From: a virus
IMG/VR virus record: IMGVR_UViG_3300046323_000360
Location: 32,192 to 96,191 of that record
Reading direction: 5' to 3' (one strand)
DNA length: 64,000 nt
The notes under the pieces were generated by a model. It was not told the DNA's origin, made no database searches, and saw only the letters and a list, made by a program, of their open reading frames with translations. Shown here in pieces: positions 36,280 through 54,850 of this stretch; positions within the stretch are counted from its first letter, which is position 1, and each line of letters starts with the position of its first letter. A program made the translations under genes and the position numbers.

Positions 36280-36472
36280 TTGTCTTTCCCTTTCTCAAGC
36301 CCCTTGCTTGATAGTTCAAGCATACACCACCCCTTCGACAAAACAAGTATTCTTATTGCGTTGTTGCGTCACCTGGCAGAAAAAATAAATACAGATAGAC
36401 ACAACAAAAAAGCAAAGATAAACGGGCAAAGAAAAAACCCCGTGTTATCCACGGGGCTTCAACTTCAAACTA

Positions 36473-36640
36473 TTAGCGAATAGTCAATACGCCCTTGCTA
36501 TCAAGTTCAACTTCCAAGTCAAAGTGCGTTGCGTTTTCAACGACCTTGATTTGGTTGCCAACTGATAAGCGACCTACCAAGATACCTGCTCCCAAAATAC
36601 CGAAACAAATAATGGCAAAAGCCAATCCTGCGTAATCCAT
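36473..36640 (-). CDS. small membrane-anchored protein (55 aa)
   Basis: MDYAGLAFAIICFGILGAGILVGRLSVGN...; start overlaps upstream stop. Confidence 0.6.
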   Translation of the reverse strand: MDYAGLAFAIICFGILGAGILVGRLSVGNQIKVVENATHFDLEVELDSKGVLTIR

Positions 36641-36807
36641 TATGCCCACTCCCTTAGTGCGTTAGTCTTGCGAGCCAATCGAGTATTGGCACGCTTTGTT
36701 GCTTTGTTGCCGTGAACGCCACTTGCGTTCGAGCGTGAACGCTCACGCAAGATTACGGCGAGCGCCTTGCTCTCTGCCTTGCGTCTTGCTTCGTTAGCCT
36801 TGTTCAT
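36640..36807 (-). CDS. small basic protein (55 aa)
   Basis: MNKANEARRK...RSRSNASGVHGNKATKRANTR; GAAAGGGG RBS. Confidence 0.6.
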   Translation of the reverse strand: MNKANEARRKAESKALAVILRERSRSNASGVHGNKATKRANTRLARKTNALREWA

Positions 36808-36977
36808 CTTGAACCCCTTTCATCTGGCTTATTCCAAGCCTACCACACCCCTACGACAAAGCAACTTATGACTGCACCGTGTGTAGGGTTATTGACAGAA
36901 AAAATAAATACACCAAACCCCTACAACTTTCGGGCAAAAGAAAACCCCCGCCGAAGCGGGGGCTTGCTTGCTGGGGG

Positions 36978-37145
36978 CTAGAGCCGAGGGTCGTGTTCGC
37001 TCATCTCTGACGGCTTTGGATAATAACCCTCGGTAACCTCCCAAGGGAAGTCTGGCGTTGGGTCGTAGCAGCTCTCGCAAACGCTATCGCTTTCGCTAAT
37101 CTCGGCTTTGCAGTATCGGCAAATCTCTGTTTCGTTGTTTGACAT
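36978..37145 (-). CDS. small Zn-ribbon acidic protein (55 aa)
   Basis: CRYC...CESC; GAAAGGTAGGG RBS. Confidence 0.55.
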   Translation of the reverse strand: MSNNETEICRYCKAEISESDSVCESCYDPTPDFPWEVTEGYYPKPSEMSEHDPRL

Positions 37146-37289
37146 TTCCCTACCTTTCTTTCTTGGTTACTACCAAGTTACACCATCTGACCAACAAAGT
37201 CAAATCGAAGTTCCGTGTTGGGGTTTATTGGCAGAAAAAATAAATACATACAGGGGTCGAGAAAAAAGGCGGGTTTCCCCGCCCTTTCC

Positions 37290-37652
37290 CTAGTTGCTTG
37301 CGTAAGCCAACACTGCTTGCTCTGTCGCCTTGAGAAACGCTTCAACATCAGACTCGCTGAGTGGAAGTTCATTGCCCTCGTCATCTGTCTTGTTCGATAC
37401 CAAAACAACATCGCCCAAGATAACATCTGTCTTGCCGTATGACGCTTCCCAAATAGCGGTGGCAATGTCGTTGAATGGGAGTCCAATCAACTTGCCCTCG
37501 TCGTGAATGTAAAGTGCCAAGCCCTTAAACGCTCCACGCAACGCAATGTGCTGGATAGTTCCGCCTACTGCTTCACGAATGTCCTTGTAAGCAATCTCTG
37601 GCATCTCTACCAAGTCCAAGTCCGTTGTGATACGAACACCTGCTACAGCCAT
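37290..37652 (-). CDS. DUF3846-like protein
   Basis: AVGGTIQ...YIHDEGKLIGLPFNDIAT...DVILGDVVL. Confidence 0.8.
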   Translation of the reverse strand: MAVAGVRITTDLDLVEMPEIAYKDIREAVGGTIQHIALRGAFKGLALYIHDEGKLIGLPFNDIATAIWEASYGKTDVILGDVVLVSNKTDDEGNELPLSESDVEAFLKATEQAVLAYASN

Positions 37653-37850
37653 TTCTGACCCCTCTCGTAGCCCTCCGCAACTTGCTTCCTGACTACATAA
37701 GTAGTCTACTCAATCCCTACGACTTTCGCTTGACTCGACTACCCGTGTGTGCGTTAGTTACATAAAAAATAAATACATAAGATAGCCCGTAACTTTCAGA
37801 CAAAAAGAAACGCCCTGCCTTTCGGCAGAGCGTCCTTTGGTGGTTGAGGT

Positions 37851-38216
37851 TTATTCGTCCTCGTCCTCGTCGTCGTCGTCGTTACAGACACCAGCGCAAC
37901 CAGCCTCACCGCAGTCCTCGCACTCGTCCTCGTCAAACTGTCCGATTAGAGTGGTGAAGCCGTCGTTAGGGTCAGCCAAGTTTGTAGCCACGGCACTCAC
38001 GAAACGAAGTGAGCAAGACTGGTCAAACCATTTCTTGACAGTTTCAAGCATTTCGATCGACGACATCTCACTAGCCGTGATGATTGGGTCATACTCATAC
38101 TTACGCATAAGTTCAACTTGCTCGTCATCCATAAGAACATAAATCTTGTGGCAAGTGTCCCAGGTGATTGCCTTAGCGTCCTCTAGGTATTCCTCTACCT
38201 TGTCGAAGTTAGCCAT
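37851..38216 (-). CDS. acidic hypothetical protein
   Basis: Likely start MANFDKV; WDTCHKIY...WFDQSCSLRFV; Asp/Glu tail. Confidence 0.7.
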   Translation of the reverse strand: MANFDKVEEYLEDAKAITWDTCHKIYVLMDDEQVELMRKYEYDPIITASEMSSIEMLETVKKWFDQSCSLRFVSAVATNLADPNDGFTTLIGQFDEDECEDCGEAGCAGVCNDDDDEDEDE

Positions 38217-38409
38217 TTCATTTCCCTTTCCTTGTATCAACTTTTGTTGATAACTCAATCTTACTCGTCTGCTATGACTTTCGCAAATCGTCGCCAACTG
38301 AGAGCCGTGTTTACAGAAAAAATAAATACACCTCCGGCACGCAACTTTTTTCATTTCCGGCAAACGCAAAAAACCCCGCCAACTTAGGCGGGGTATCTGC
38401 GACTAACTC

Positions 38410-38805
38410 TTACTTGTAGAGAGTTGTCAAGGTTGTGTAGATAGTCTGGCTCTGGGCTTCGGCAGTTGCCTCGGCAAGCATAGTGTCTAGGCTATCTGCC
38501 AACTCTGGGTGAGTGGCAACAACTAGGTTGGTGAACGCTACCTTGAAAGCGTCAAGGTTGAAGTTGGTGCGACTACGCCAATCCAAGCGAGCGACCTCGA
38601 TGTTGTGATGAATAAGAGTGTCGAACGCTGAAGTCTTAGCCGTGTCGTCTTTCTCAAACTCTTTCTCCAAGACAGCAACAACTTTCTTAGCCTGACCCTC
38701 TAGAGCCTTGACCTCGGCACGAATGTTTACAAGTTCCTTAACTTGCTCAACAACTACCTTGCTGACTTTCTTAGTGCGAACCTCGGTTGCGGTTGCGATA
38801 GACAT
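38410..38805 (-). CDS. coiled-coil hypothetical protein, paralog family A
   Basis: TLIHHNIEVARLDWRSRTNFN. Confidence 0.75.
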   Translation of the reverse strand: MSIATATEVRTKKVSKVVVEQVKELVNIRAEVKALEGQAKKVVAVLEKEFEKDDTAKTSAFDTLIHHNIEVARLDWRSRTNFNLDAFKVAFTNLVVATHPELADSLDTMLAEATAEAQSQTIYTTLTTLYK

Positions 38806-39017
38806 TTGTTCCCTTTCTATAATCTCTGGCATTTCCTTCGACTACCTAAGTAGTCTATACCCTATTTACGACATTTGCCAAACTCTGAGCCGTGTCGAGG
38901 GTAATACGCAGAAAAAATAAATACACTAACCGGCTGCCACCTTCAGCAAACTTTTGAATAAGAAAAAACCGCCTTAGTCGAAACTAAGACGGATTATCTT
39001 TTTGCTTGTGAGTTTGG

Positions 39018-39296
39018 TTACTGCCAGCGAACAACACGCTTACGGCTATTGCTAGGCGTAATGTGCCAAATAGCCTGCCTTGCCCAATGACCATTCGCAT
39101 AACGCATAGCGGTTGCGAAGTTGTCATAAGTCTTAGACGAACGCCCATTATCCCAAGCGAGTGTCAAGACAAACTTTCCCTTGACCTCACCCGTGTATGA
39201 ACGAACATCAACAATGTTTCCGCTGTAATCTTTTTCTTCGATTACTAATGCGCCCTCGACCTCACCTTTGGTGAAGTAATCTTTGTTGTAAATCAT
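39018..39296 (-). CDS. hypothetical cassette protein
   Basis: Likely start MIYNKD after GAAAGGG. Confidence 0.65.
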   Translation of the reverse strand: MIYNKDYFTKGEVEGALVIEEKDYSGNIVDVRSYTGEVKGKFVLTLAWDNGRSSKTYDNFATAMRYANGHWARQAIWHITPSNSRKRVVRWQ

Positions 39297-39480
39297 TTGT
39301 TTCCCTTTCTTATTGTCCCTTTCGGGCTTACCTAATAAGCCTAACATACTCTACGGCAAAGTCAAGTTCAGCCAGAGATAGTGGCAAAACTAGCAGAAAA
39401 AATAAATACACGCAGGTCGAAATAAAAAAATCAGCAAAAGAAAAACCCCTGCCAAAAGGCAGGGGCTTGTCCGTGTCTGA

Positions 39481-39669
39481 TTACCAGACACGAACTCCGT
39501 GAACGCTACCGCACTTACAGTGTGCCTGAGCGATACCGCCGTCAATCATCGCTGGGTCAATCTCTACATCAGCAGAGCAGACTGGGCAGGTGAAGAACTC
39601 TACAGTCTCGACTACACCGCCTAGGTAAGTTACCTCGCGAGTGCTTACTACTACATTTAGAAGTGCCAT
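39481..39669 (-). CDS. small Zn-ribbon protein
   Basis: CPVC...CKC; GAAAGGG RBS. Confidence 0.6.
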   Translation of the reverse strand: MALLNVVVSTREVTYLGGVVETVEFFTCPVCSADVEIDPAMIDGGIAQAHCKCGSVHGVRVW

Positions 39670-39841
39670 TTCTTTTCCCTTTCGTTGGCTTATGTAATAA
39701 GCATAGCATTGTTTTAGACTTTTTCAACTTTTATTATTTTCTTCTTTTTGATTAGCAGAAAAAATAAATACAAAAAAAAAAAAAAAAAAAAAAAAAGGCA
39801 AAAGAAAAACCTCGGGTTTCCCCGAGGCTTCCTTTCTGCCC

Positions 39842-40060
39842 TTAGGCTACTGACTTCTCCGTGTCAGCAATGGCTTCCTTTAGCCAAGCCAATGCTTCCT
39901 GACGACCCTTGACTCCGCGACCAAAAGTCTTATAAGCGTCAATACCCATTAGACGACCTAGTGACTTCATTGCTGGCTCGCGGGTCATTTGAAACTTACC
40001 CTCCGACTTAATCTCGGCTTCTAGTCCAATGACTAGCAACTTCGCCTGTAGTAGGTTCAC
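39842..40060 (-). CDS. hypothetical cassette protein
   Basis: GAAAGGGGTAGG RBS. Confidence 0.65.
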   Translation of the reverse strand: MNLLQAKLLVIGLEAEIKSEGKFQMTREPAMKSLGRLMGIDAYKTFGRGVKGRQEALAWLKEAIADTEKSVA

Positions 40061-40253
40061 GACCTACCCCTTTCACTTTTGTAACCCTGGTTGGTTACAT
40101 ACCAACTATACACCTTTCCAAAGACTTTTTCAACTTCTTTTATTTTTTCTTTGGCCACCATAAAAAATAAATACAGCTCAGCCGTGTTAGTTATTTCGGG
40201 CAAAAAGAAAACCGGCTGAACATTTCTGTTCAACCGGCTGACTTCGGATTAGG

Positions 40254-40457
40254 CTACTTGACAGTAACCCAAGCCATCGCAGTTTGTAGCAAGTGGTTGT
40301 AGTCGCCACTCATTGAGTCTTTTAGGTAAGCGTCAATCTCTTCTTTTGAAACGCCGTGTTTCTTGAGCGCTGACTTGACAGCCCCCATAATCGCAAAAGC
40401 ATTTCCGTCTTGACCAACTAACTTGACCTTGATTGCTGGATACTTTACATCTGACAT
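40254..40457 (-). CDS. conserved phage hypothetical protein
   Basis: VKLVGQDGNAFAIMGAV...SGDYNHLL motif, recognisable as widespread in phages. Confidence 0.7.
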   Translation of the reverse strand: MSDVKYPAIKVKLVGQDGNAFAIMGAVKSALKKHGVSKEEIDAYLKDSMSGDYNHLLQTAMAWVTVK

Positions 40458-40711
40458 TTGTTTCCCCTTTTTGGTGGGCTTCCAAGTCGGTGGTTGGGAA
40501 GAACTCTCCATTGCCACTCTTATCTAGTCCTAGGCTGGAAGCGTTAGGTTTTTTACCTAACACTCTTATAGTAGCACTTCGCACAGACAAAATGTGATTA
40601 CTATTTTGAAGTTGCTCCCGCCGCCAGAAAAAATAAATACACGCAAACAAAAGCAAAAACAAAAAAAAAAACCAGCCAACCTTTCGGCTGACTGGCTCTT
40701 TATTTTTTCGG

Positions 40712-40942
40712 CTATTCGGCAGAAACCGCAGCGAAATCTGCGCCACTGGCAAAGGTATCCGAAATGTATTCGATAGCGATACCTACAGGGTCGTCGCAAT
40801 CAGACTCCATACACTTCAACTGATAATCCAAAACTACTCCCGTGAGAGAGTCCGTGTAACGAACAATCTCAACTTTGTGTCCATAGTGAGCAGACAACTG
40901 CTCATTGAACCACTGCTCGCCCTTTACGAGTTTTTTACTCAT
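40712..40942 (-). CDS. hypothetical cassette protein
   Basis: GAAAGGGG RBS; HYGHKVEIVRY. Confidence 0.65.
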   Translation of the reverse strand: MSKKLVKGEQWFNEQLSAHYGHKVEIVRYTDSLTGVVLDYQLKCMESDCDDPVGIAIEYISDTFASGADFAAVSAE

Positions 40943-41085
40943 TTGTTTCCCCTTTCTAGGTATCTATAGACTACAGCACACCTACGACAAAAACTCTGAA
41001 CATTATTTAGAACTTACCACGCAGCCATAAAAAATAAATACACTTTACGATTCGAAGAAAGTGAAAACATTTGGGCAAAGAAAAA

Positions 41086-41183
41086 GGGCTAGAGAGTTGG
41101 GGGGAACTCTCTAGCCCGTGTTGCCTAGTGAAAGGGGGATAAAACTAGGCAACCTTTTACCTAGCGAGGGGGGTGCTAGGTAA
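41086..41183 (-). ncRNA. candidate 3'-UTR RNA: three perfect hairpins with C-rich (anti-SD) loops ending in a terminator
   Basis: Stems of 13, 10 and 9 bp; minus-strand loops CCCCCC, TTTATCCCCCTTTC, ACCCCCCTC. Confidence 0.5.
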
Positions 41184-41192
41184 GTCTAAAAA

Positions 41193-41345
41193 CTAACTAC
41201 GCCAATACTCGTGCCAAAAGTTTTTCTTGCCTTTTAGCATACGAATAAGACTTGGCTTCCAAAAACAATACCACCTATTGCGTAACCAAAACATCTCACG
41301 CTTGAGTTGTGTCCTGATGTCACGCTTCTCTTTGTGCTTTGCCAT
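41193..41345 (-). CDS. small basic Trp-rich protein (50 aa)
   Basis: MAKHKEKRDIRTQLKREMFWLRNRWWYCFWKP...; GAAAGGGAG RBS. Confidence 0.55.
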   Translation of the reverse strand: MAKHKEKRDIRTQLKREMFWLRNRWYCFWKPSLIRMLKGKKNFWHEYWRS

Positions 41346-41523
41346 TTCTTTCTCCCTTTCTCTGGCAACAAGATAACTCTACTACAACTGAGCCGTGTTC
41401 GCAACAACAACACGACGCGACTTCAAACTAACAGAAAAAATAAATACAGCTTCCGGATAACAAACAAATAAGCAAGGCAATAAAAAAGCCCCGCCTTTCG
41501 GCAGGGCTTTCTTGTTTTGTTGT

Positions 41524-41682
41524 TTAGTAGTTTTCGTTCACAAACTCTAGGGCTTGCTCTTGCGAAACACTTGCGTCACGAAGCAAAGTAATCAACTGCT
41601 CGTCTTCTGACAACAACTGAACTGGAACTGTGCTTTCGCCCGAAAGCATTAGCAACTTCTCGAATAGGCTTGGGGTTGTCAT
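41524..41682 (-). CDS. small acidic protein (52 aa)
   Basis: MTTPSLFEKLL...; GAAAGAGGG RBS. Confidence 0.55.
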   Translation of the reverse strand: MTTPSLFEKLLMLSGESTVPVQLLSEDEQLITLLRDASVSQEQALEFVNENY

Positions 41683-41881
41683 TTGTCCCTCTTTCTAGTT
41701 GGTTTTCCAACTAATCCAATACTACACCTTTGATACGACATTTTCAACTCCCGTGTTTAGCCCGCGTGCTATTTCGCAGAAAAAATAAATACACCTATCT
41801 TCGGCAGCGCTACCACGCAACTTCTAAATAAGGTAAAAAGAAAACCTGCCCGAAGGCAGGTTTCCCGTGAGAGCCTAAGCC

Positions 41882-42322
41882 CTAGAAACGCTTGGCACAG
41901 ACTGGACCAATGCCATTAGCCACGCTCTTAGCGTCAGTAAGAAACGCGCCACAGACACAGCACAAACCTGTTTCAACGCCAAACGCCTTAGCCTCGTCAA
42001 GGGTCATCTTGTCCGTGTGACGCAACTTGCGGATAGCACCAGACTCATAGTCAAAACCGCCCTGAATGTTTAGGCGCTTGGCGTAAAGGTTGCCTGTTTC
42101 ACGCGAAGCCTGAACGCGGTAAATCGCGTAGTCAGCGGTGCGATACATACCAACCTCAACGGCAGGTGCGGAAGTGATTGGCATTTTTAGCAAATCACCA
42201 ATGAGGCGACTAGCCTCGCTAACGCCTAGAGTGGCGTAGTCAATCGGCTGAGCGTAGTTGCGCTCGCCAGTGAGCGACTTGATAAAAGCAACTTGCTTTT
42301 CGGTCGCGCGTAGTGTGGTCAT
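41882..42322 (-). CDS. DUF6011-like Zn-finger protein
   Basis: ATEKQVAFI N-terminus; CCVCGAFLTDAKSVANGIGPVC C-terminus. Confidence 0.75.
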   Translation of the reverse strand: MTTLRATEKQVAFIKSLTGERNYAQPIDYATLGVSEASRLIGDLLKMPITSAPAVEVGMYRTADYAIYRVQASRETGNLYAKRLNIQGGFDYESGAIRKLRHTDKMTLDEAKAFGVETGLCCVCGAFLTDAKSVANGIGPVCAKRF

Positions 42323-42579
42323 TTTTCCCTCCTCTGCCAGCCCCTTGCTGGACTATTCCAGCATACACCTATCTACGGACATTCGCAAAACGAAATACCA
42401 CCGGCTACGGCGAGCGCCAGAAAAAATAAATACGCTACTCGCCAATGGAAAATCTCGGGCAAAGAAAAAACTAGGCAGATAGCGAGGGGGGTGCTATCTG
42501 CCTAGTCCGTGTCCGAAGTGTTTGTCTGTTCAGTTAGAAAGGGGGGTTTTTACTGAATGAAATACACTCCGAAGTCTAT

Positions 42580-42801
42580 TTAGTCTGTGCCAAACTTTTG
42601 GTCAAAAGCCGCACGATAACGCTCTGACATACGATAAGCCATTACGACTTTCTCCCGATAGTCAAGCATTTCTTGCTCCGTGTCAAAGGTCATAGCAAGA
42701 CCCTCGCTGTCACGAAGTTCCCACTCGCCATTTACACGAGGCCAGTTCTTTACCCAGTAGCCACCAAGAAAAGTTTCTTCTTGAAGAAGTGAGCCTGCCA
42801 T
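42580..42801 (-). CDS. hypothetical cassette protein
   Basis: GAAAGGG RBS. Confidence 0.65.
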   Translation of the reverse strand: MAGSLLQEETFLGGYWVKNWPRVNGEWELRDSEGLAMTFDTEQEMLDYREKVVMAYRMSERYRAAFDQKFGTD

Positions 42802-42990
42802 TTTGTTTCCCTTTCGTTTTGTTGATAGTTCTATCTTATAGCCTGTCTATGACATTTCGCAAATCTTGTTTCGAAGTTTGTGCCGTGTCCCAGAAAAAAT
42901 AAATACAGCCACTTCTCGCAGGGTAAAAGAAAATCCCCAATCCAAACTCTCGGCTTGGTTTATTGGGGATTATCTTTTTTGGCTAGGCTA

Positions 42991-43509
42991 CTAGCAAATC
43001 TCGAAGCCACCACAGTTCTCTAGAAAGTCGGCAAACTCTGCCAAAACCTCTAGGTCAAAGTTATAGTTGGTTTCCCAAGCGTCTACCTTGCCCTCGCCAG
43101 AGCAACCATTACACCAGCCGTGTGTCCTGCCAGTAATCGAAGCAATCTCTGGTGAGAGTTCCTTAGTGGTCATTCCGTGTTCTACACCGATAGCGTCAGA
43201 GCGGATACCAGTTCCCTCGCAATGCTTACACGCAGGGCGTTCCAACTCTGCCAGCATAGCGTTACGCTCACTTGCGTATTGAGTTGCCACGCCATTAGCG
43301 ATAGTGCCACGAATAGCCATAGCCAGTTTTAGGCTATCCCGACCATTCAAGCCATCGCCATCGTTAGAGTGTCCGTGCTTGACCTTGCCAGCCAACTCTG
43401 GAAAGTTTACCTCGCAGTATTCCCAGAGCGGATGCCAATACCAAACATTCGAACGAAAGTATTCGCCCACCTCACTAGACGGATTCTTTCCGTATACATC
43501 CATTCCCAT
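42991..43509 (-). CDS. hypothetical protein with DnaJ-type CxxCxGxG Zn finger
   Basis: MGMDVYG..YFRSNVWYWHPLW; CKHCEGTG and CNGCSGEG. Confidence 0.7.
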   Translation of the reverse strand: MGMDVYGKNPSSEVGEYFRSNVWYWHPLWEYCEVNFPELAGKVKHGHSNDGDGLNGRDSLKLAMAIRGTIANGVATQYASERNAMLAELERPACKHCEGTGIRSDAIGVEHGMTTKELSPEIASITGRTHGWCNGCSGEGKVDAWETNYNFDLEVLAEFADFLENCGGFEIC

Positions 43510-43702
43510 TTGAATCACCTTTCTTTTGGACACTTCTAACTTACACCAGCCCAGCGACATTCGCAACTCTTTCGCCGGCGTGCGAGGGGTAGCAGAAAAA
43601 ATAAATACAACCCCTGAAAGTTTGGCGAGCCAGTTTAGCGACTTGGCTCTAGGTCGGGCTGACTAAAGACAGCGAGGTCGCCAATCCTCGCTTGCCTATT
43701 CT

Positions 43703-44086
43703 TTAGTCGTCTGTGTCTGACCTGACTAAAACATTGCGAGTAAAAGTTGCGCTACCCCACGACAAGTCGTGTCCAATAGCCTTAGCCTCAACCTCGACTG
43801 AAGTTCCTGAACGCTCTCCATTATCCCAGTCACGAACGCGCAGAGTTCCATAGAGAAAAATGCGGTCGCCTTTATTTACAGACGAAGCCGTGTTCACGGC
43901 GAGGTCGCGGAATGAGGTAATGGTATACCAGTTGGTTTCACCATCTACCCACTTGCTACTTGACCTATCGAACCTACGCTGACTTGAAGCCAAACGGAAT
44001 GAAGTGATAGGCAAGCCATCCTGCGTGACTAGGTGACGTGGGTTTGTTGCTACTAAACCAGTAATAGTGATGTTTTCGGTAATCAT
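43703..44086 (-). CDS. ssb: single-stranded DNA-binding protein (actinobacterial type, no acidic PF tail)
   Basis: ITITGLVATNP..ITSFRLASSQRRFD..WVDGETNWY..KGDRI..GTLRVRDW..VEVEAKAIGHDL. Confidence 0.9.
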   Translation of the reverse strand: MITENITITGLVATNPRHLVTQDGLPITSFRLASSQRRFDRSSSKWVDGETNWYTITSFRDLAVNTASSVNKGDRIFLYGTLRVRDWDNGERSGTSVEVEAKAIGHDLSWGSATFTRNVLVRSDTDD

Positions 44087-44252
44087 TTTTCCCTTTCTTG
44101 TTACCTCTACTCTACCCTATCTATACGACAAATCGCAACTATCCCGTGTTCACCACAGAAAAAATAAATACAGATCGACTGATGAGCCAACTTTCAAATA
44201 AGGCAAAAGAAAAACCGCCACCTTTCGGTGACGGCTTGTCTTGAAGTTTTGG

Positions 44253-44657
44253 TTACTCGCCCTCGTAAACCTCGCCCTTGCTAAAGGTGAACAATGCACC
44301 AAACTCATCGTGACTTGAACGCACGCAAGTCAAGTCTTTGCCATCCAACTTGTAACGAAGTGTAAAGTCGCCATTCAAGGTTAGACAATCAACAACTTGA
44401 TTAGCGTAAATGTTTGTCCAGCCAGCAACTTGATTCCAGTTCATGTTGCCACTGAAAACATAAACCAGAGATTCCGTGTTCCAGCCATTAGCCTCAAGCC
44501 ACGGATTCAAAACCTCATACTTGAAGTTGTCTTTATCTTCTTCGAAGCAACCAAAACATTCGTTGCTAGGCGTTGAAGTATCGGTATCTTCGTCATAAGC
44601 CTCGCACGAACAATCGCTTGATAACTCAAACTCGATAACTGTCTTTGTGTCGCTCAT
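44253..44657 (-). CDS. acidic hypothetical protein
   Basis: GAAAGGG RBS; CSC..CFGC; RSSHDE. Confidence 0.7.
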   Translation of the reverse strand: MSDTKTVIEFELSSDCSCEAYDEDTDTSTPSNECFGCFEEDKDNFKYEVLNPWLEANGWNTESLVYVFSGNMNWNQVAGWTNIYANQVVDCLTLNGDFTLRYKLDGKDLTCVRSSHDEFGALFTFSKGEVYEGE

Positions 44658-44842
44658 CGTATTCCCTTTCGTTGTTTGACTTGCTTGCTATTAGTTTACC
44701 CTAATGCCACGACAAAAACCAAACACTAATGCGAAGTTGTAGCCCCCTTCAGAAAAAATAAATACAACGCGGCGAGCGCAACTTTCCAGACAAAGAAATA
44801 AGGGTTGAACCGAAGTCCAACCCTTACAAAGTTTCCGTGTTG

Positions 44843-45091
44843 CTAGTCCATTTGACTTTCACGCCAAGCGTCATAGTCAGCGTCCTCGTCACGCTCGTCA
44901 CGACTAGGCAACTCAATCTCAAGTTGCTGTCCACACTTAGGGCAATCAGCATAAGCGTTGCTCTGCCAATCGTCAGTTGAGCCGTCCAACTCAAACTCGT
45001 CCTCGCAAGTGTCGCAGTAGAAAACTCCCGTGTAGTCCTGAGCGTAGATACCAGAGCCACGCATTGAACCCTCTGGATAGTTGCTTGACAT
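44843..45091 (-). CDS. very acidic Zn-ribbon protein
   Basis: Likely start MSSNYPEG; CDTC...CPKC. Confidence 0.65.
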   Translation of the reverse strand: MSSNYPEGSMRGSGIYAQDYTGVFYCDTCEDEFELDGSTDDWQSNAYADCPKCGQQLEIELPSRDERDEDADYDAWRESQMD

Positions 45092-45289
45092 TTCTTTCCT
45101 TTCTAGCCAGCCCCTCTGGCTATGTAAATAGCCTATACCCAACCAACGACATTTCGCTAGTGAGTTTTCCGTGTTAGTTCCGTGCAGCAGAAAAAATAAA
45201 TACACTAATGCGAAGTTGCGAAAAGTATAATCTTCCAGACAAAAAGAAAACCCCGAACCTAAGTTCGGGGCTTCCGTGTTTGGTGCTTG

Positions 45290-45607
45290 CTAGTAGTAAA
45301 GCCTAGCCATACGCTCAATGCGCTTTTTGTCATAGTGGCTAGACTTAGCCATTAGGTCGAACACTACGCTTTTAGGTAAAGCACGAATGATACGCCCTAG
45401 CAAGGTGCTAGTGGTTTGTGAAATGTAACCAAGTGCTAGTGAGTCAATGGTTTGTGTTTCAATGTTGTAGTCCAGAATAACCGTGTTCCAGTGGACAACT
45501 GAATAACGCTCGCCCGAACGAATGGCGTGGATACTGCTGTTGTAGTTTTCAAAACTTTCCCAGTTGGCAAGTTTCTCGTCAATCTTGTGGTTCGCGATGC
45601 GTGCCAT
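45290..45607 (-). CDS. hypothetical cassette protein
   Basis: GAAAGGG RBS. Confidence 0.7.
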   Translation of the reverse strand: MARIANHKIDEKLANWESFENYNSSIHAIRSGERYSVVHWNTVILDYNIETQTIDSLALGYISQTTSTLLGRIIRALPKSVVFDLMAKSSHYDKKRIERMARLYY

Positions 45608-45799
45608 TAGATACCCTTTCTATTTCTATCTGTTGTTTTCCAGATACTCCAACTATACCCTAACCACTAGACTTTTTGCCCCGTGTTATTTGGAAGTTGC
45701 AGAAAAAATAAATACAAGCCGGGAGCAAAAAAAAATCGCCAAATACGGCGAGCGCGGAAACGGGCTGAACCGAAGTCCAGCCCGTTCGCGGTGTGCCGC

Positions 45800-46141
45800 C
45801 TAGCGCGGGATAATGTCCACTACGCGACTAACGCCGTGCTTGACAACCAGCGCGTGAATCTCTGGAAACTCGGTGGCGAGTTTCTTGCTGTCCACGCGAG
45901 TGGTGTCGCGCAAGGCGATACGAACAACATCTAGCCCGTGGTGAACTAGGGTGGTGGCGGTTCCAGCCTCAACTAGAATCTCCTCGCGCAAAGCGTCAGC
46001 CTCAGCCTCAGCCTCGCGAATGAGCGCACGCAAGTCTGCCAAGCGTTGCGCCTTAGCGACCATTACCTTGGAAATCTTCTTGACTTCCGTGGTAGTGGTG
46101 GTGGTTGCCTTAGCAACCGAAGCGGTGGTGGCGGTAGCCAT
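45800..46141 (-). CDS. coiled-coil hypothetical protein, paralog family A
   Basis: TLVHHGLDVVRIALRDTTRVDSKKLATEFPEI. Confidence 0.75.
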   Translation of the reverse strand: MATATTASVAKATTTTTTEVKKISKVMVAKAQRLADLRALIREAEAEADALREEILVEAGTATTLVHHGLDVVRIALRDTTRVDSKKLATEFPEIHALVVKHGVSRVVDIIPR

Positions 46142-46332
46142 CTCTGCCCCTCTCTATAAGTCTTACTTCTGTTTCTGACTTATGTAGTAAGTCTATACCC
46201 TAACTACGACTTTTGCGCAAATCGTTTGCTGAAAAATCCCGTGTCGTCAGAAAAAATAAATACACTCCCGGGTTGAAAAAATCGGGCAAGAAAAAACCCT
46301 CTCTTGCGAGAGGGCATTTCCCGTGTCGCTCG

Positions 46333-46539
46333 CTAGTTGCGAACATCAAGTCCACGGCGACGCAAGTCTTGAAGTATGTTTTTCAAGGCTCGATTGTCGC
46401 TTGGGGTGCTTGCTGAAAAGAAGAAGTCCCGTGCGTTAGGTGCTATCCACTTGTAGTGTCCACCCTTAGTGAGTTCGACTCTCCAGCCAGCCTTGATAGC
46501 GAGTTTTATCAAGTTGCCTAGTTCCTTTTTGTTAGCCAT
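46333..46539 (-). CDS. HicA-like protein
   Basis: AGWRVELTKGGHYKW...STPSDNRALKN...DLRR, HicA-like pattern common in actinophages. Confidence 0.7.
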   Translation of the reverse strand: MANKKELGNLIKLAIKAGWRVELTKGGHYKWIAPNARDFFFSASTPSDNRALKNILQDLRRRGLDVRN

Positions 46540-46773
46540 TTGTGTTTCCCCTTTCTTTGGCTATACTCATAGCCTACACCTTGCCAGCGACATTTGCACA
46601 AAAAACTTTTTGTTTGGCGTGTCAAGTTCAGAAAAAATAAATACACTTGCCCCCGTGACAAAAAAAAAAAGAGAGCCACAACCGAAAGGGGGTAAGGTTG
46701 TGACTCTCTAGGCGGAGTAATCTCACGCCTTTGTTGGCAGGGGAAAGGGGGGTTTACCCTGCCAAGTTTGTGC

Positions 46774-47109
46774 CTAGACTTTTGTCTTGGCAAACTCCGT
46801 GATAGTTTCGCCCTCGTATTCGTATTCACCCGTGTCGGCGTTTACGATTACAGTTGGGTTATCCATCCAAACATCGTCATTGTCTGCGTAGTTGTCAATC
46901 CCGAAACTCAACTCGCCATCGTAGTTGCCTAGTTTGGCGAACTCAAAGAATAGTTGAGCCGTGAGATAGGTAACATCTCCAATGCGCCCCGTGCGAGCCA
47001 AAACATTACGCACGGCAGTTAGGTTGTCGTCACCTGACCAGTGACCATAAAAAGTTATCGGTGTTGGAAAAGCCTCTGCCTTTACAACAATCATACTGCG
47101 GTCGCCCAT
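46774..47109 (-). CDS. conserved phage hypothetical protein
   Basis: MGDRSMI...YGHWSG motif. Confidence 0.7.
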   Translation of the reverse strand: MGDRSMIVVKAEAFPTPITFYGHWSGDDNLTAVRNVLARTGRIGDVTYLTAQLFFEFAKLGNYDGELSFGIDNYADNDDVWMDNPTVIVNADTGEYEYEGETITEFAKTKV

Positions 47110-47274
47110 TTCAAATCCCTTTCATCTGGCTACTGCGCTTCACCTGATACTTCAACATTACCAGCATTTACACTCCAGCGCAACATCTGGCAAATCCCGT
47201 GTCTAGTGTCAGAAAAAATAAATACAAATCCCGTATAAGAAAAAACGCTGGCGACTTCTCACCAGCGTTATTCC

Positions 47275-47568
47275 TTAGTTGATTAGGTTGTCAATGTCGA
47301 AGTGAAACTTTTCTGGCAGGTTCTCTTTTGTCCAAGCAGAAAACTCTTTGTATTCTGCCAAGATTGCGTGTCCCTTTGCCATAATGTCTGACATTTCGGT
47401 AATGATGTAGCCAATAATCTCTGGCGTTAGTTCAATGTCCTTATGTCCAATGTATGCCTGTAGCCCCTCAATGCGAGCGTCAAGACCCATTTTGCGTTTG
47501 CTGATAATGTCGCCTGTAATCTTGGCGACCTGTAAGTTCAGCATTAGGTTTTTTTCGTTTTTACTCAT
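47275..47568 (-). CDS. hypothetical protein (leaderless)
   Basis: TAGAGT-N6-ATG at 47568. Confidence 0.65.
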   Translation of the reverse strand: MSKNEKNLMLNLQVAKITGDIISKRKMGLDARIEGLQAYIGHKDIELTPEIIGYIITEMSDIMAKGHAILAEYKEFSAWTKENLPEKFHFDIDNLIN

Positions 47569-47678
47569 ACTCAAACTCTATCCCAACCCTGTGACATTTT
47601 GCTAGAACCTTTTGGCAAGTGTCAGAAAAAATAAATACAACCTCGGCAAAAAAGAAAAAGTGCCTTTCGGCACTTTCA

Positions 47679-47912
47679 CTACTTGCGGTTTAGCAACTCC
47701 GCTTTTTCGTTGTGGTTGCGAACGAATACAGACTCCACCGCTACGGCTTCGTGTCCGCGCAACTGCTGAACCTGACCAGCCGTCAAAAAGTAGAACCTGC
47801 GAACGAGTCCGTCTTTGTATTCGGCGAGCGCGGTTGTCGCAAGCGTTTGAGTGCGAAAGGTAGCAACTAGGCTATCCGCGCCGTCATACAGAGCGTAGGC
47901 TTTAGGCTTCAT
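47679..47912 (-). CDS. hypothetical protein
   Basis: Likely start MKPKAY overlapping upstream gene end. Confidence 0.55.
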   Translation of the reverse strand: MKPKAYALYDGADSLVATFRTQTLATTALAEYKDGLVRRFYFLTAGQVQQLRGHEAVAVESVFVRNHNEKAELLNRK

Positions 47913-48267
47913 CGTCCTCGCCGTCCTCGTCAATGAACACAATCTCAAGTTTGGTAACGCGCTCGCCCCAGCCGTCAATCTCGCGCAAGGTAGCATACAC
48001 AGGATAGTATCCGTCACCCAAGCCTGTCCGTGAAACTACACCCGCGCCTGCCGTTCCACCGTCAAACTCCAACTGACCGATAGGGTGCTTGTGCTCCGCT
48101 AATGTAGTAGCGCACGCCCCGCCGTATGAGTAGTGTCCAATGTAACCCTCGCCGTAGCCCTCTTTGCCCCAGCCGTCGAGGTAGCCAGGGTCGGTAATCA
48201 AAATCTGTCCGCTATCAACCGCGCAATAGCCGATACAAACTGTCCGTTCCGTGTATGTGTTAGCCAC
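47902..48267 (-). CDS. DUF4241-like protein
   Basis: IGYCAVDSGQILITDP...TGLGDGYYPVYA. Confidence 0.7.
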   Translation of the reverse strand: MANTYTERTVCIGYCAVDSGQILITDPGYLDGWGKEGYGEGYIGHYSYGGACATTLAEHKHPIGQLEFDGGTAGAGVVSRTGLGDGYYPVYATLREIDGWGERVTKLEIVFIDEDGEDDEA

Positions 48268-48269
48268 GC

Positions 48270-48401
48270 CTACGCCTTTCCTTGTAGTGCTAGTGCGAAC
48301 CAATCTTCGAACGCCGTGTCGCAATCCTCGCATAAAGGGTGAACCGCGCCGACAGGTGCTTCAATCTCCGTGTCGCACTTATAGCAAGTTGTCTGTTCCA
48401 T
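48270..48401 (-). CDS. small Zn-ribbon protein (43 aa)
   Basis: CYKC...CEDC; fills the gap in a short operon. Confidence 0.5.
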   Translation of the reverse strand: MEQTTCYKCDTEIEAPVGAVHPLCEDCDTAFEDWFALALQGKA

Positions 48402-48405
48402 AGTT

Positions 48406-48690
48406 CTAACTTACCACTAAGTCGGCGTATTCGTCAAGTGCTTCTGGCGTGTCTGGAATGGTGTGTCCAGCCATACGAAATCCAGCCTCGATGATTAGGC
48501 TGTGTGGTTCAAAACCTAAGGCGTGTGCCACAATCTCAAGAAACTCTGACGAGATTTCCTTTTTGCCACGCTCAACTTCTGACAGATAGCCAAGAGCAAT
48601 AAAGCCTTTGTCTGACAAGTCGCGCAACACCATTCCACGACTTAGGCGTGTTTCGCGTAGCACTTCGCCAAGAGCGTCTTTGAATAGCAT
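48406..48690 (-). CDS. ClgR-like XRE-family transcription regulator
   Basis: LGEVLRETR...LRDLS...LGYLSEVERGKKEISSEFL closely follows the actinobacterial ClgR pattern. Confidence 0.82.
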   Translation of the reverse strand: MLFKDALGEVLRETRLSRGMVLRDLSDKGFIALGYLSEVERGKKEISSEFLEIVAHALGFEPHSLIIEAGFRMAGHTIPDTPEALDEYADLVVS

Positions 48691-48885
48691 TTAGTGTTCC
48701 TCTCCTTTTCGTGTTTCGTATCAAAACTCTACCAGCAACCTATGACATTCTCCAACTTCGTATTAGCGTGTTCAAAAGTTAGCAGAAAAAATAAATACAT
48801 TCGTGTTCCCCTGAAAATAGAGAAGTCGCCAACGAACCCGAGGGGGGGGGTTCGCTGACGACCTCGTGTGTCTGACCTCTGGGGG

Positions 48886-49275
48886 TTAGATAGTCAGAAC
48901 CTTAGGTGACACCTTGCTTGGTGGTAGCAAGAATGTAGCAAGCATTTCTGGGTGGTTCTTGGTGATGAAGTCCAGCATAGCCTTAGCGTCATACTTAGGC
49001 GTGTCAGAGGGCTTATCGTAACGAACCTTGACAAGACGCTTGCCCCTTGCGTCTGTGCCAATGACAGTAACGCCAAAGTCAAGTTCGCCCAGAACAATCT
49101 CACGAGCAGACTTGATGTTAGCGTCAATCTCTTTTTCGAGTAGGTGTGCCTGTGCCAAAGCCTTTACAGCCTTTTGCGCCTTAGGCGTGATTACGACCAG
49201 AGTTTCCTCGGTGGTCGCAGTGAGGTCGCTAGTAGCAACCTTAGCGGTGGTGCTTGGTTTTGTTTTAGTAGCCAT
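48886..49275 (-). CDS. hypothetical protein, distant member of family A (leaderless)
   Basis: TTGCGA-N17-TAAGGT-N7-ATG at 49275; Thr/Ala-rich N-terminus, YDAKAML..NHPEM tail. Confidence 0.65.
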   Translation of the reverse strand: MATKTKPSTTAKVATSDLTATTEETLVVITPKAQKAVKALAQAHLLEKEIDANIKSAREIVLGELDFGVTVIGTDARGKRLVKVRYDKPSDTPKYDAKAMLDFITKNHPEMLATFLLPPSKVSPKVLTI

Positions 49276-49388
49276 ACCTAAAACCTTAGCAGGTTGTTTC
49301 GACATTCGCAACTCCTCGCAGAAAAAAGTCAGAAAAAATAAATACACGCTGGGGGAAAAGAAAACCCAGACTTTCGTCTGGGCGTTTC

Positions 49389-49601
49389 TTACCAGAAAAC
49401 TGGAATAGGTTTTTTCTCTGTGTCAATGGATAGGACTTTCCAAGAGTCCACTCCCCAGAGCAATCCGAGTTCTGAACCGTTGTCCCACTTGACGCGTAGA
49501 ACGCGTCCCCAAATGTCATTGGTTTCGCTGACAACAGTTCCCAAATCACCGGGCTTCAAATCCGTGTGCTTGTCCGTTGTGTGTAGTAGTTGGATACGCA
49601 T
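49389..49601 (-). CDS. DUF4314-like protein
   Basis: LKPGDLGTV...VKWDNGSELGLLWGVDSW. Confidence 0.75.
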   Translation of the reverse strand: MRIQLLHTTDKHTDLKPGDLGTVVSETNDIWGRVLRVKWDNGSELGLLWGVDSWKVLSIDTEKKPIPVFW

Positions 49602-49605
49602 TGCT

Positions 49606-49869
49606 CTACTCCTCTTCGTCTGTGTAGTGTGCGTCAATCTCTGTAAGCGAGCCGAGTTCATAACTGTCGCAGTAGTAGCACTCGCCGTCACTATCCGCTG
49701 GCATTGGGTGGTTGTTATCTACGAACCACGCCGCCCACTCTGATAGGTCATACTCACGCACCGATTCAATGTATTCATCAAAGTGGTCGTCCAAGCCAGC
49801 CGTGTCAATAATGGTAATACCCTCGGCACTGCCCCACGAGCCGTCCTCGGCAAAAAACATCTTAGCCAT
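49606..49869 (-). CDS. acidic hypothetical protein
   Basis: FFAEDGSWGSAEG.. motif; GGAGGAG RBS. Confidence 0.65.
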   Translation of the reverse strand: MAKMFFAEDGSWGSAEGITIIDTAGLDDHFDEYIESVREYDLSEWAAWFVDNNHPMPADSDGECYYCDSYELGSLTEIDAHYTDEEE

Positions 49870-49978
49870 TAGTGGTTCTCCTCCGCATCGCAACCTTGGT
49901 CAAAGCACTCTTCGCAATAGCCGTTTCCCAGCAAGCCGTCCGTAACCGAACAGGCTTGGCACTTACATTCTTTTTCCA

Positions 49979-50203
49979 TTAGAAAACCATTTCTCCTAGA
50001 ACCTTGCCGATACGAATGCGAGCCTCGTTGAGAATGGCATACTCGTCACTGTCCTCGCCAATGATGTCAGCGACAATCGGCATAGCCTGTTCAATCGCAT
50101 ACTCGGCTGTTTCAGTTGGCACTTCTAGGTCTGACTCGGCTTCAGCAATCTTGGCAATCAAGCCAGACAGAAGCAAAACATCTTCTTTCAAATCCCGTTC
50201 CAT
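49979..50203 (-). CDS. acidic helical hypothetical protein
   Basis: GAAAGGA RBS. Confidence 0.65.
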   Translation of the reverse strand: MERDLKEDVLLLSGLIAKIAEAESDLEVPTETAEYAIEQAMPIVADIIGEDSDEYAILNEARIRIGKVLGEMVF

Positions 50204-50544
50204 TTGTGTCCTTTCTTTGGGGTCTTATCAAGTTAGCAGTTTATTGAGTTGTTGTCAAATCATTAGTCATAATCATCATAAAAAATAAATACATAGTCAT
50301 AAGGTGGAAAAGCCACAGGGAAGTTTTCTGGTTAGCGTTCGCGCTTTGGACAAGTCCAGTCGGCTACTGACATTCAGGTTATCCCTGTGGCTGTTCCGTG
50401 TTTAGCGACACTGCTGTCGGTTTTCCTAGCAAAATGGTCAGTTTCTAAGCATAGTAGCGGAGTCTAGAACACTCCTACACCGCAACTGATTTACAGCGTC
50501 CCTCGGGGCAATCCGTGCTAGGGAAGTCTTTATTTAGTTCTAGG

Positions 50545-51537
50545 TTACACGCTTGCCGTTTCTGTGTCAAGTGGCTTCTCCTCATTACAGAATACGCAGG
50601 AGAACCCGACCTGCTGGGTCGTGCCGTCCACTAGTTTGCTTAGAGGCACAAACTTGTGTTCGCAGACTTTGACTTTAGGCTCGCCGTCATTCAGCGTAGG
50701 GAACAAACGCTCGCCGTTTTCATTGGTAACAAAAATCGCCGTGTTGTCCTCTTGTAGTTCCATTTGCTCGTCAGGGTCATTGTCCTGTGCGAGTTCCCAA
50801 GCGTTCTCTGCCGTGTTGGTGCGAACCTTGTAGGTCTTGGTGACAACTACATAGAAGTCCTGCTCTGGGCGTGGGCAGTCCTCATACCAGTCGTCTTGGT
50901 CGTCAGAGTGTTCGCAGGGACACTCGCGGTCACGCGCAACATAGTCGGCGTGGCAATCAGGAATGTCCCACTCCTCCGTGGTAATCAGAGAACGCTCGCC
51001 CTCGTCGCCGTCAGACGAAGTAAACTTCACGCCCCAGCCCTGTTCCTCCTCGCACTCAAAGTCGAAGTCCAGAGTCGGGTGCTGTTCGACCATAGCCACG
51101 AAGACAGGTTCAGGAACAGACCACGCAGTTTCAAAAGTAATGTTGGCAGAGGCGTTGCCCTTGTCGTCCTTACTGATTTCGACATTCGGGCTACCAGCGT
51201 CCCACTTAGTTCCCCACTCACGAATGTTCCAGTCATACCAGCCATTGCCAGTAAACTTCAGGTCAAACGCAAACTGCTCCTCTTTAGTCCAGCCCTCGTA
51301 TTCATCTGGCTTCTTGCCGTGTGCGTCTGCGAAGTAGGCTTCCTTGTCCTCTGGCTCAATGAAGTTCCAGAATGAGAATGGGCTTTCGTTCATAGCGTCC
51401 TTGGTTTCATTCTCCTTGGTTTCGGAGTTCCAAGTGGTGTGCTTGGTTGGGTATTGCTTCCCAGCCTTTTCCACGAACGCAGTAATGTCTGCTTCTGTTC
51501 CAGACACTCCTACATAGTTGTAAACCCAGTTTGGCAT
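50545..51537 (-). CDS. DUF1281/Api92-like ferredoxin-fold protein
   Basis: MPNWVYN...WYDWNIREWGTKWDA...FETAWSVP. Confidence 0.75.
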   Translation of the reverse strand: MPNWVYNYVGVSGTEADITAFVEKAGKQYPTKHTTWNSETKENETKDAMNESPFSFWNFIEPEDKEAYFADAHGKKPDEYEGWTKEEQFAFDLKFTGNGWYDWNIREWGTKWDAGSPNVEISKDDKGNASANITFETAWSVPEPVFVAMVEQHPTLDFDFECEEEQGWGVKFTSSDGDEGERSLITTEEWDIPDCHADYVARDRECPCEHSDDQDDWYEDCPRPEQDFYVVVTKTYKVRTNTAENAWELAQDNDPDEQMELQEDNTAIFVTNENGERLFPTLNDGEPKVKVCEHKFVPLSKLVDGTTQQVGFSCVFCNEEKPLDTETASV

Positions 51538-51796
51538 TTGATTTCCTTTCGTTGCCTTAGTTCAGGATAGCATACCTTCAATCAACAAGCAACTACTAAT
51601 CAAAAGTTTTCTCTTTCTTTTTTTCAGAAAAAATAAATACTCCCCTCGAAAATACCGGGCGAAGCGAAACCCCCGACCAGTGAAAGGAGTTGGTCAGGGG
51701 TTTCTAATCTGGTGGTCAGTAGCACTTCATTGGGCTATGCGCGGAGAAAGGAACGGAACAACACCGCGCCCTGACCACCAGACTTCTTGGGGCTAG

Positions 51797-53659: not shown

Positions 53660-53791
53660 TTCCGTTCCTTTCGTTTATGGCTTGTATTTTGTTGTAGTCC
53701 TAGTAAAGCAGTTTTTGGAGAGCGTGTCAAGTTGATTTTGAAAAAAGTTTTTTGACACGCTCTCCCTGCTTTAGCGAAAGGACGAGAAACG

Positions 53792-54808
53792 CTAAATCTT
53801 TGCTGGCTTGACTTCCTCACCAAAGACGCGAGTGAAAACATCTGCCACTACTGGGCGGTCATTTTCAGGCGCACCTGCGAGCAAGTTAGCAACAGCCCAC
53901 TTAGTTCCAAAGGTCTTGGAAAGGTCGCGGAAAGCAAGTAGTTCGCGCATTTGTGGCGACCAAGAAACCTCACCCGAAACCTGCTTCTTAGACAAGTTCT
54001 GGCTGGCAGTAATCATTGGGGCAGATACACCCAACTTCTTAGCCAATCCCCAATCAGTAGTCATTTCGACCTGAATGGTGAAACGCGATAGCAGAGCCTC
54101 TGACAAGCGAACCCCAGGTGCGTTTGGGTTAGTTGCGCCAACAACATAAAAGCCCTCTTTGGCTTTGATAGTTCCGCGCTCTGGGTTCTGGGTAATGGTC
54201 AGTTCACCGCGTCCGTCCATAAGACCATAGACAGCAGACATAACCTTTGGGTCAATCAGACCAACCTCGTCAATCAAGAGAGGACGACCCTGCTCAACAG
54301 CGCGAACCAATGCGCCGTCAATCCACTCAAAGCCACCAGACGGAGTTTGAACATAGCCACCAATGAAGTCTGAAAGTTCGGTGTCGCCAGAGCCAATAAT
54401 GGTTTCTAGTTCGTCACCAAAAGCACCCTCAACGAGAGCAGTTTTTCCACAGCCCGGTGCGCCATAGAGCAAAACAAACTGGTGAGCCTCACGCGCTTTG
54501 CGTAGAACCTCAATGTCGGTGTGTTCGCCCCAACCACGCGAGTAGTAGTCGTGACCATTCGGGCGAGCATACTTCTCTGCGCCCTTGAGTGCGTCTGTTT
54601 CCACTTTTGCCTTGTCTGCTTGTTTGTGGGTCGTTGGCTCTCCACCCCTATTACGAAGTGTAGCACGACCAGCAGTAGGCATAAGGCTGTCAAGTCCAGC
54701 AGGAACAGCAGTAGGGTCAAGTTGCTGAATAGCAACTCCATAGACCAGAGCCGAAAGGTCTGGGTAGAGAGCGTCAATGTCGTTCTCGACAGGGGCAATA
54801 CTTGTCAT
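53792..54808 (-). CDS. MoxR/CbbQ-family AAA+ ATPase
   Basis: GAPGCGKT, LLIDEV, ATNP, LSEALLSRF. Confidence 0.9.
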   Translation of the reverse strand: MTSIAPVENDIDALYPDLSALVYGVAIQQLDPTAVPAGLDSLMPTAGRATLRNRGGEPTTHKQADKAKVETDALKGAEKYARPNGHDYYSRGWGEHTDIEVLRKAREAHQFVLLYGAPGCGKTALVEGAFGDELETIIGSGDTELSDFIGGYVQTPSGGFEWIDGALVRAVEQGRPLLIDEVGLIDPKVMSAVYGLMDGRGELTITQNPERGTIKAKEGFYVVGATNPNAPGVRLSEALLSRFTIQVEMTTDWGLAKKLGVSAPMITASQNLSKKQVSGEVSWSPQMRELLAFRDLSKTFGTKWAVANLLAGAPENDRPVVADVFTRVFGEEVKPAKI

Positions 54809-54850
54809 TTTGTTTTCGTCCTTAGTTAGTTGGTTTGTTGCTATAAGTGA

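Follow-up and report, generated by a model that had tools for sequence, protein, structure and literature searches.

The DNA studied here is a stretch of 64,000 nucleotides (hereafter the window) that corresponds to bases 32,192-96,191 of the 96-kb contig IMGVR_UViG_3300046323_000360 of the IMG/VR virus database, which is approximately 57% complete and has a G+C content of about 45%. The sequencing runs in which matching DNA was found are freshwater metagenomes. About 36 short transcription units lie on the minus strand in the region 33,000-56,060, and five of them (ending at 41193, 42580, 46774, 48886 and 51797) bear long-stem hairpins with large pyrimidine loops that contain a run of C. The units are built as cassettes, in which an exact 13-mer is followed by sigma-70-like -35 and -10 boxes, often by a short 5' hairpin, and then by a Shine-Dalgarno (SD) sequence, a small open reading frame (ORF) and a terminator. 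An array of about 35 such cassettes, each headed by the 13-mer, extends from 33037 to 51640 on the minus strand; its GAAAGGG-type SDs, with the consensus GAAAGGG(G/A), are the sites on which the C loops are predicted to act. In all, 38 exact copies of the 13-mer are found at 32367-56084 (e.g. at 41029-41041), against 0.15 expected. Most of the folded 3' untranslated regions (3'UTRs), approximately 28 out of 35, terminate in an ordinary GC-stem tetraloop terminator. The small cassette mRNAs that bear the C-loop hairpins are probably of the early, host-takeover type.

All hairpins listed in an earlier note, made from the letters of the window alone, are present and fold as described there, and three related elements (48871-48898, 51739-51769 and 53770-53796) were found in addition. 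All of them lie on the minus strand. The gene 41345-41193 of cassette P41435 is followed by an array of three, beginning 10 nt past its stop codon with a hairpin at 41157-41183 (9-bp stem, 9-nt loop 41166-41174 with six C then UC). The second, at 41120-41153, has a 10-bp stem and a 14-nt loop of the UUAYC5UUUC type (41130-41143), and is matched by the covariance model R1 described below (E 6e-4), and the last, at 41086-41117, is a terminator hairpin with a 13-bp stem, a six-C loop closed by UU/AA and a U run. Cassette P42894 carries a composite hairpin at 42512-42574, with an outer 10-bp stem containing two G-U pairs, an inner 6-bp stem and a 17-nt loop (42535-42551, six C then UUUC), followed by a terminator hairpin at 42470-42506 with a 14-bp stem, a U run and a 9-nt loop identical to that at 41166-41174. 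In cassette P47213, the first element past the stop codon of the 111-amino-acid gene 47109-46774 is a hairpin at 46734-46765 (9-bp stem, 14-nt loop 46743-46756 with six C then UUUC), which also matches R1. It is followed by the terminator hairpin 46677-46702, which has a 12-nt UUAC5UUUC loop (46684-46695; R1 match, E 6e-5), a stem that reaches about 14 bp with one G-U pair, and then a run of 11 U. Two further hairpins belong together: 48871-48898 lies over a stop codon (48886-48888, in its loop) and displays a five-C run, and 48826-48861, after a gene of 139 or 153 amino acids, has eight C in its loop (48840-48849).

Within 33,000-56,060, seven hairpins with a perfect stem of at least 7 bp have GGGGG in their plus-strand loop, and thus C runs in the minus-strand RNA. 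No such hairpin appeared in 30 dinucleotide shuffles, and no C-loop hairpin of the opposite polarity was found in the same region. The other listed hairpins (42512-42574, 48826-48861 and 51666-51704) contain G-U pairs or have a composite stem. The C runs are not a matter of composition, because the sense strand is G-rich overall. The hairpins start 3-100 nt past the stop codons of phage genes, each sits between a stop codon and the promoter motif of the next cassette, and they have no promoter motif of their own. The final hairpin of three arrays (41086-41117, 42470-42506 and 46677-46702) is an intrinsic terminator, with the GC-rich stem and subsequent U run common to Rho-independent terminators. 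In contrast to the latter, the phage loops are large and conserved instead of being tetraloops, and there are extra upstream hairpins; 41120-41153, 41157-41183, 42512-42574 and 46734-46765, as well as 51666-51704, have no U run. A G-quadruplex or i-motif reading of the runs was dropped, as they are separated by long stable stems.

The marker gene adjoining the hairpins codes for a 620-amino-acid vWA protein and is preceded by the gene of a MoxR-type AAA ATPase. The vWA protein has more than 2,000 metagenomic homologues, the closest with 92-64% identity, and its closest counterpart in a named phage is that of Actinomycetia phage DSL-LC01 (46% identity), followed by those of Microbacterium and Gordonia phages. 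The DSL-LC01 genome is itself an assembly from a lake metagenome, with a host that was only predicted (PMC10611076). Because the nearest named relatives are actinophages, an actinobacterial host, as guessed in the earlier note, is plausible, though not proven. Relatives were drawn from IMG/VR only, where alignment of vWA homologues gave 80 loci totalling 1.54 Mb; the 92-64% homologues lie outside this set. A scan of viral contigs for a promoter 16-mer yielded mostly single chance matches and recovered one relative, the complete 153.7-kb genome G001, which uses the 13-mer 15 times and whose orthologues are 30-73% identical to those of the window.

In the 1.54 Mb of relatives, hairpins with at least five C in the loop occur 99 times in sense and 31 times in antisense orientation. 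Among 83 distinct C5-loop hairpins, all but two (81) avoid long sense ORFs, and 75 of these 81 are at most 100 nt past a stop codon. They recur behind the same gene families, namely behind that of the 111-amino-acid gene at 19 loci, behind vWA at 9, behind a further small family at 9 and behind the family to which gene 49347-48886 belongs at 5. For the 111-amino-acid family, C-loop hairpins are present in 13 of 25 distinct orthologous 3'UTRs, all of them among the closer relatives (13/17) and none among the distant ones (0/8). When 14 of the orthologous 3'UTRs of this family were folded, the loops recurred on unrelated stems. Likewise, two of 14 3'UTRs of G001 have C-loop hairpins, and one of these arrays follows the orthologue of the 111-amino-acid gene, with nearly the same loop on entirely different stems. 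The statement of the earlier note that stems differ while loops recur extends to the relatives, where loops are conserved and stems are turned over. Two types of loop recur: one reads UUAYC4-6UUU(C), and in the other UU and AA close a run of C5-7. The covariance model R1, built from twelve examples of the first type, gave 42 matches at E<=1, all 42 of them on the sense strand and 30 of them new. In its seed, all stem pairs vary and eight or nine loop positions are invariant, a count that is descriptive and not a test, because the hairpins had been selected as hairpins. For the UU-C-run-AA apex, 19 sense-strand cases, among them the window hairpin 41086-41117, compare with a single antisense one. 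The C-loop hairpins are a real feature that is both conserved and strand-specific.

As the earlier note had proposed, the loops are complementary to the phage's own ribosome-binding sites: they are exact complements of the GAAAGGG(G/A) SDs of the cassettes, perfect over 8-10 nt, and the GAAAGGGG form of the site is present in eight genes of the window. The predicted loop-to-site duplexes have energies of -13 to -18.7 kcal/mol, compared to a median of -9.9 for a 16S-type tail on the same sites. When all called genes of the 96-kb contig were taken in, predicted pairing with the loops clearly favoured the cassette sites (median -12.9 kcal/mol) over those of other genes (-5.9 kcal/mol; Mann-Whitney p 1.7e-12). 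GGGG is present in 11 of 40 cassette sites versus 4 of 64 other sites. Among 63 distinct phage loci, C5 loops are denser where GGGG-type SDs make up a larger share of the sites (Spearman 0.51, p 2e-5, with phylogeny ignored). From the pairing bias and this correlation, we conclude that the loops are tuned to the cassette-class sites of the phage itself. The idea that the loops mimic the 3' tail of 16S rRNA applies to a single one, the 11-nt loop 51681-51691 of the second vWA 3'UTR hairpin (51666-51704, 14-bp stem), which includes the U of that tail; the others have uninterrupted C runs. Such runs fit the G runs of the phage SDs and mismatch the A of the canonical GGAGG, and a general shut-off of host translation, as the note had imagined, is therefore disfavoured and not indicated by the data.

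The possibility that each C loop acts on the site of its own gene was rejected, as the own site ranks only 14-26 of 36 in the window. Exact matches of loops to own and to other sites were at background for all genes except AAA and vWA. The site of the next downstream cassette is slightly favoured: in three out of four units of the window it is one of the five best partners, and family-wide it reaches a mean percentile of 0.385 (p 3e-4), a modest effect computed without regard to the relatedness among the phages. In a striking case, that of relative L147, the match between the loop and the site of the downstream cassette covers 14 nt and takes in both flanks of the run.

The vWA and AAA genes show a second, gene-specific form of complementarity. 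In the first vWA 3'UTR hairpin (51739-51769), a longer stem encloses a 6-bp GC stem, whose loop lies at 51745-51763. The loop displays, at 51746-51758, a 13/13 complement of the ribosome-binding region of the vWA gene itself (53660-53672, in front of the start codon 53659-53657). In G001 the ribosome site of the vWA orthologue differs from that of the window, and its own 3'UTR contains a complement that matches it 15/15, and in DSL-LC01 the pattern is seen again, yet with other letters. Among 59 relatives with distinct sites, the longest perfect complement between a vWA site and its own 3'UTR has a mean length of 8.9 nt, versus 6.5 nt after permutation, and none of 20,000 permutations reached the observed mean (p<=5e-5). 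As many as 24 different site variants have own matches of at least 10 nt, and the complement is mostly unpaired in the predicted fold in 22 of 28 cases. Similarly, the hairpin after the AAA ATPase gene 54808-53792 (53770-53796) presents in its 13-nt loop (53777-53789) an 8-nt complement of the SD region of that gene (54809-54833). Own complements of at least 9 nt are found for 32% of the AAA genes of relatives, and every other gene position is at background. The covariation in relatives that the earlier note had named as a check was thus found for these two genes, whose ribosome sites and 3'UTR loops truly covary. Pairing of 3'UTR loops with SDs is therefore under selection in this lineage, and the same class of mechanism is for that reason the economical reading of the C loops as well.

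These elements were compared to described RNAs that act on SDs through C-rich motifs. The actinobacterial 6C small RNA (sRNA) has two hairpins with six-C loops, which bind G-rich ribosome sites without a chaperone, for example that of panD, and its overexpression arrests growth via these C loops (PMC6486639). A scan of the window with Rfam gave nothing above threshold; the weak matches were terminator look-alikes, apart from a full-length match of 6C (RF01066) at 48818-48901, with 28.5 bits versus a threshold of 47 and a per-genome E of 0.004. This match comprises 48871-48898 as its first half and 48826-48861 as its second, that is two adjacent hairpins as in 6C, with 5 and 8 C in their loops. 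The arrays 41086-41183, 42470-42574 and 46677-46765 likewise consist of adjacent hairpins with C-run loops. A search for 6C in 31 related phage records returned three weak matches, none of them above the cut-off. Among 26 Microbacteriaceae genomes, 12 have one 6C-like copy of 37-49 bits, likely a true 6C, with a UUC6AA apex on both hairpins, as on the window hairpin 41086-41117. The phage elements and the 6C RNA (B11 of M. tuberculosis) thus have in common tandem stable hairpins, loops of at least five C, a U-rich tail after the last hairpin, the UUC6AA apex, an actinobacterial setting and a predicted chaperone-free pairing with G-rich sites. However, 6C is a free-standing chromosomal gene whereas the phage elements lie in mRNA 3'UTRs, their arrays have one to three hairpins with stems of variable length, and their main loop type adds a UUUC extension that fits the phage SD. 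Because of their low score and their location in the 3'UTRs of phage mRNAs, they cannot be counted as members of the 6C family.

In Staphylococcus aureus, a C-rich motif in the 3'UTR of icaR pairs with the SD of the same mRNA (PMC3868564). The vWA and AAA loops also match the site of the same mRNA (over 13/13 and 8 nt, respectively), which the poly-C loops do not, and the icaR 3'UTR is by comparison the closest precedent for the vWA and AAA loops. It differs from them in that it belongs to another phylum, in that the phage-borne motif is displayed in a hairpin loop, and in that the support for the phage pairing comes from covariation among dozens of relatives instead of from experiment. The earlier note had pointed to RNAIII as the analogue. 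RNAIII and RsaE/RoxS, the UCCC-motif sRNAs of Firmicutes (PMC2790875), also target SDs through C-rich loops or unpaired motifs, in trans, but they are stand-alone RNAs of low-GC Gram-positives with no sequence or Rfam relation to the phage elements, for which 6C and the icaR 3'UTR are nearer. By analogy with these two, the phage C-loop module is most likely an anti-SD RNA of the 6C/icaR-like kind. A literature search found no paper describing such phage elements.

We tentatively propose, at slightly less than an even chance, that the hairpins form a conserved family of 3'UTR regulatory RNAs of this anti-SD kind, acting on the cassette mRNAs of the phage. One to three stable stems in the 3'UTRs of some small cassette mRNAs make up an array, the last stem of which is often the intrinsic terminator, and the elements are therefore located at the protected 3' end of the transcript. 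The single-stranded loops expose a run of C, in most cases with UUUC after it or with UU and AA at its sides, and would pair without a chaperone with the G-run SD regions, of the GAAAGGGG type, on the cassette mRNAs of the phage itself. Such pairing would take place in trans and possibly also in cis, on read-through transcripts that span the next cassette. Trans action on the cassette class is favoured because the own site is average, no constant target family was seen and one bearer is possibly leaderless; cis action on read-through transcripts is a possible addition. Occlusion of the ribosome site would dampen or time translation, and the duplex might form a target for double-strand-specific RNases. 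That the pairing takes place in the cell and represses translation, and which mRNAs are its true targets, are inferred.

Several observations weigh against this proposal. The loops hold 5-8 C compared to 3-4 G in any SD, a surplus that simple SD pairing does not need, and the correlation between loop density and SD usage leaves phylogeny aside. Family-wide, the poly-C loops show no significant preference for their own site (mean percentile 0.45), and no constant best-target gene family emerged within the 20-kb loci of the relatives. One of the bearer genes may be leaderless and another bearer family is without a clear SD in some phages, and since such bearers exist, the C-loop elements cannot all be autoregulatory. 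Start codons of the relatives were assigned by a simple rule, and the only RNA library with a match contains assembled contigs of a relative of about 88% identity with reordered cassettes, from which transcript ends, strand and abundance cannot be read.

A different function that we regard as unlikely is mimicry of the host 6C RNA, in which the arrays would repress host mRNAs with G-rich sites, such as dnaB and panD in mycobacteria, and arrest host replication or division during takeover. The full-length but sub-threshold Rfam match at 48818-48901 points in this direction, as do the Microbacteriaceae UUC6AA apex on 41086-41117 and on 18 more sense hairpins in relatives (1 antisense), the growth arrest produced by 6C overexpression through its C loops (PMC6486639) and the actinophages among the relatives of this phage (PMC10611076). 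However, the Rfam threshold is not reached, the commonest loop ends in UUUC, an ending that fits the GAAAGGGG sites of the phage and was seen in none of the 6C loops, and loop density tracks the SD usage of the phage itself. In a broader version, to which we likewise assign a low probability, a large and abundant lineage of freshwater actinophages would embed mimics of host 6C in the 3'UTRs of takeover genes, shutting down host mRNAs with G-rich sites and timing the phages' own early genes at once, beside the vWA/AAA circuit. Equally doubtful, in our view, is that the loops are bound by an RNA-binding protein of phage or host (for instance S1 or a KH-type protein with a preference for pyrimidine tracts) or block 3' exonucleases, with their complementarity to SDs being incidental. 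Two loop types and a variable length of the C run argue against a single protein site, the complementarity is class-specific and tracks SD usage, and the neighbouring gene-specific loops covary with ribosome sites; in addition, as weak evidence, the bearer genes have no recognisable RNA-binding domain. On the other hand, protein operators, too, typically combine a loop of fixed sequence with stems that vary, and the hairpins are located at mRNA 3' ends, where stabilisers act. Protein binding is kept under consideration because the surplus C and the UUA flank are not explained by SD pairing.

It is quite improbable that the hairpins are ordinary terminators with functionless loops arisen as by-products, either as inverted remnants of ribosome sites left by shuffling or through slippage in homopolymers. 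Three of the hairpins are indeed terminators, the cassettes are visibly shuffled among relatives at the promoter motif, and C and G runs are prone to slippage. Yet most C-loop hairpins lack a U run and lie upstream of the real terminator, tetraloop terminators suffice for most cassettes, and the C runs oppose the G-rich composition of the sense strand. Moreover, the loops persist behind orthologues while the stems are fully replaced, and all 42 covariance-model matches (42/42) are on the sense strand. Compared to these explanations, the proposed anti-SD family acting on the cassette mRNAs remains the reading that we prefer.

Regulation by 3'UTRs and C-rich anti-SD loops has so far been described for a few bacterial examples, every one of them studied in a single species. 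In the very abundant uncultured freshwater phages considered here, this principle recurs as a conserved and repeated building block, and natural variation already yields covariation evidence for the pairing of 3'UTRs with ribosome sites. If the proposal is correct, phages would use RNA elements that are hidden in terminators and overlooked by annotation pipelines to time their takeover genes or keep them in check, and perhaps those of the host as well, and a compact chaperone-free module of translational control would become available for Actinobacteria. If instead host 6C mimicry were combined with timing of the phage's own genes, the arrays would amount to a phage-borne sRNA regulon embedded in mRNAs.

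With regard to the source lineage, vWA-bearing contigs of two relatives (L207 and L208) were binned in metagenome-assembled genomes (MAGs) of Ca. Limnocylindrus (46% identity) and Lysinibacter (34%). A scan of a genome collection found only these two MAG contigs, and binning of phage contigs is unreliable. No clear copy of 6C RNA was found in the Ca. Limnocylindrus and Lysinibacter MAGs, and a megablast search of 6 kb against the INPHARED phages gave no match.

Some further features of the cassette array were recorded. The 13-mer lies approximately 30 nt upstream of the -35/-10 pair and may therefore be an upstream element or a factor site instead of a core promoter, and the domain is bounded by two inverted copies of it (32367 and 56048/56072). 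When the region 40600-49400 was compared to three sequencing runs (X24, X10 and X6), related contigs were seen to join the cassettes in another order, with joints at or beside the 13-mer (e.g. 41046 to 44845 and 43609 to 47241), which suggests that cassettes are shuffled by recombination at the common motif. Several cassette 5'UTRs (33500-36400) start with near-identical short hairpins that overlap the -10 box and the transcript start and are possible 5' stabilisers. In the unit headed at 47626, the ATG (47568) is only 6-7 nt past a -10-like box and the gene looks leaderless, and in the unit headed at 49333 translation could begin at either of two in-frame starts (49275-49305), one of them leaderless and the other with a GAGGAG SD inside the promoter region. 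No function could be assigned to the genes that bear C-loop hairpins from searches of Pfam, PHROGs and the ESM Atlas. Two cassette proteins have weak family matches, 41882-42322 to a DUF6011 C-terminal motif (E 6e-13) and 46333-46539 to HicA-like toxins, below threshold (E 0.0015). The terminator of the unit ending at 39842 is followed, at 39772-39796, by some 25 consecutive T, which are U in the mRNA. Outside the array, Pfam shows a LAGLIDADG-type domain interrupting the large terminase gene (26601-29048), as would be expected of an intein or a homing endonuclease insert.

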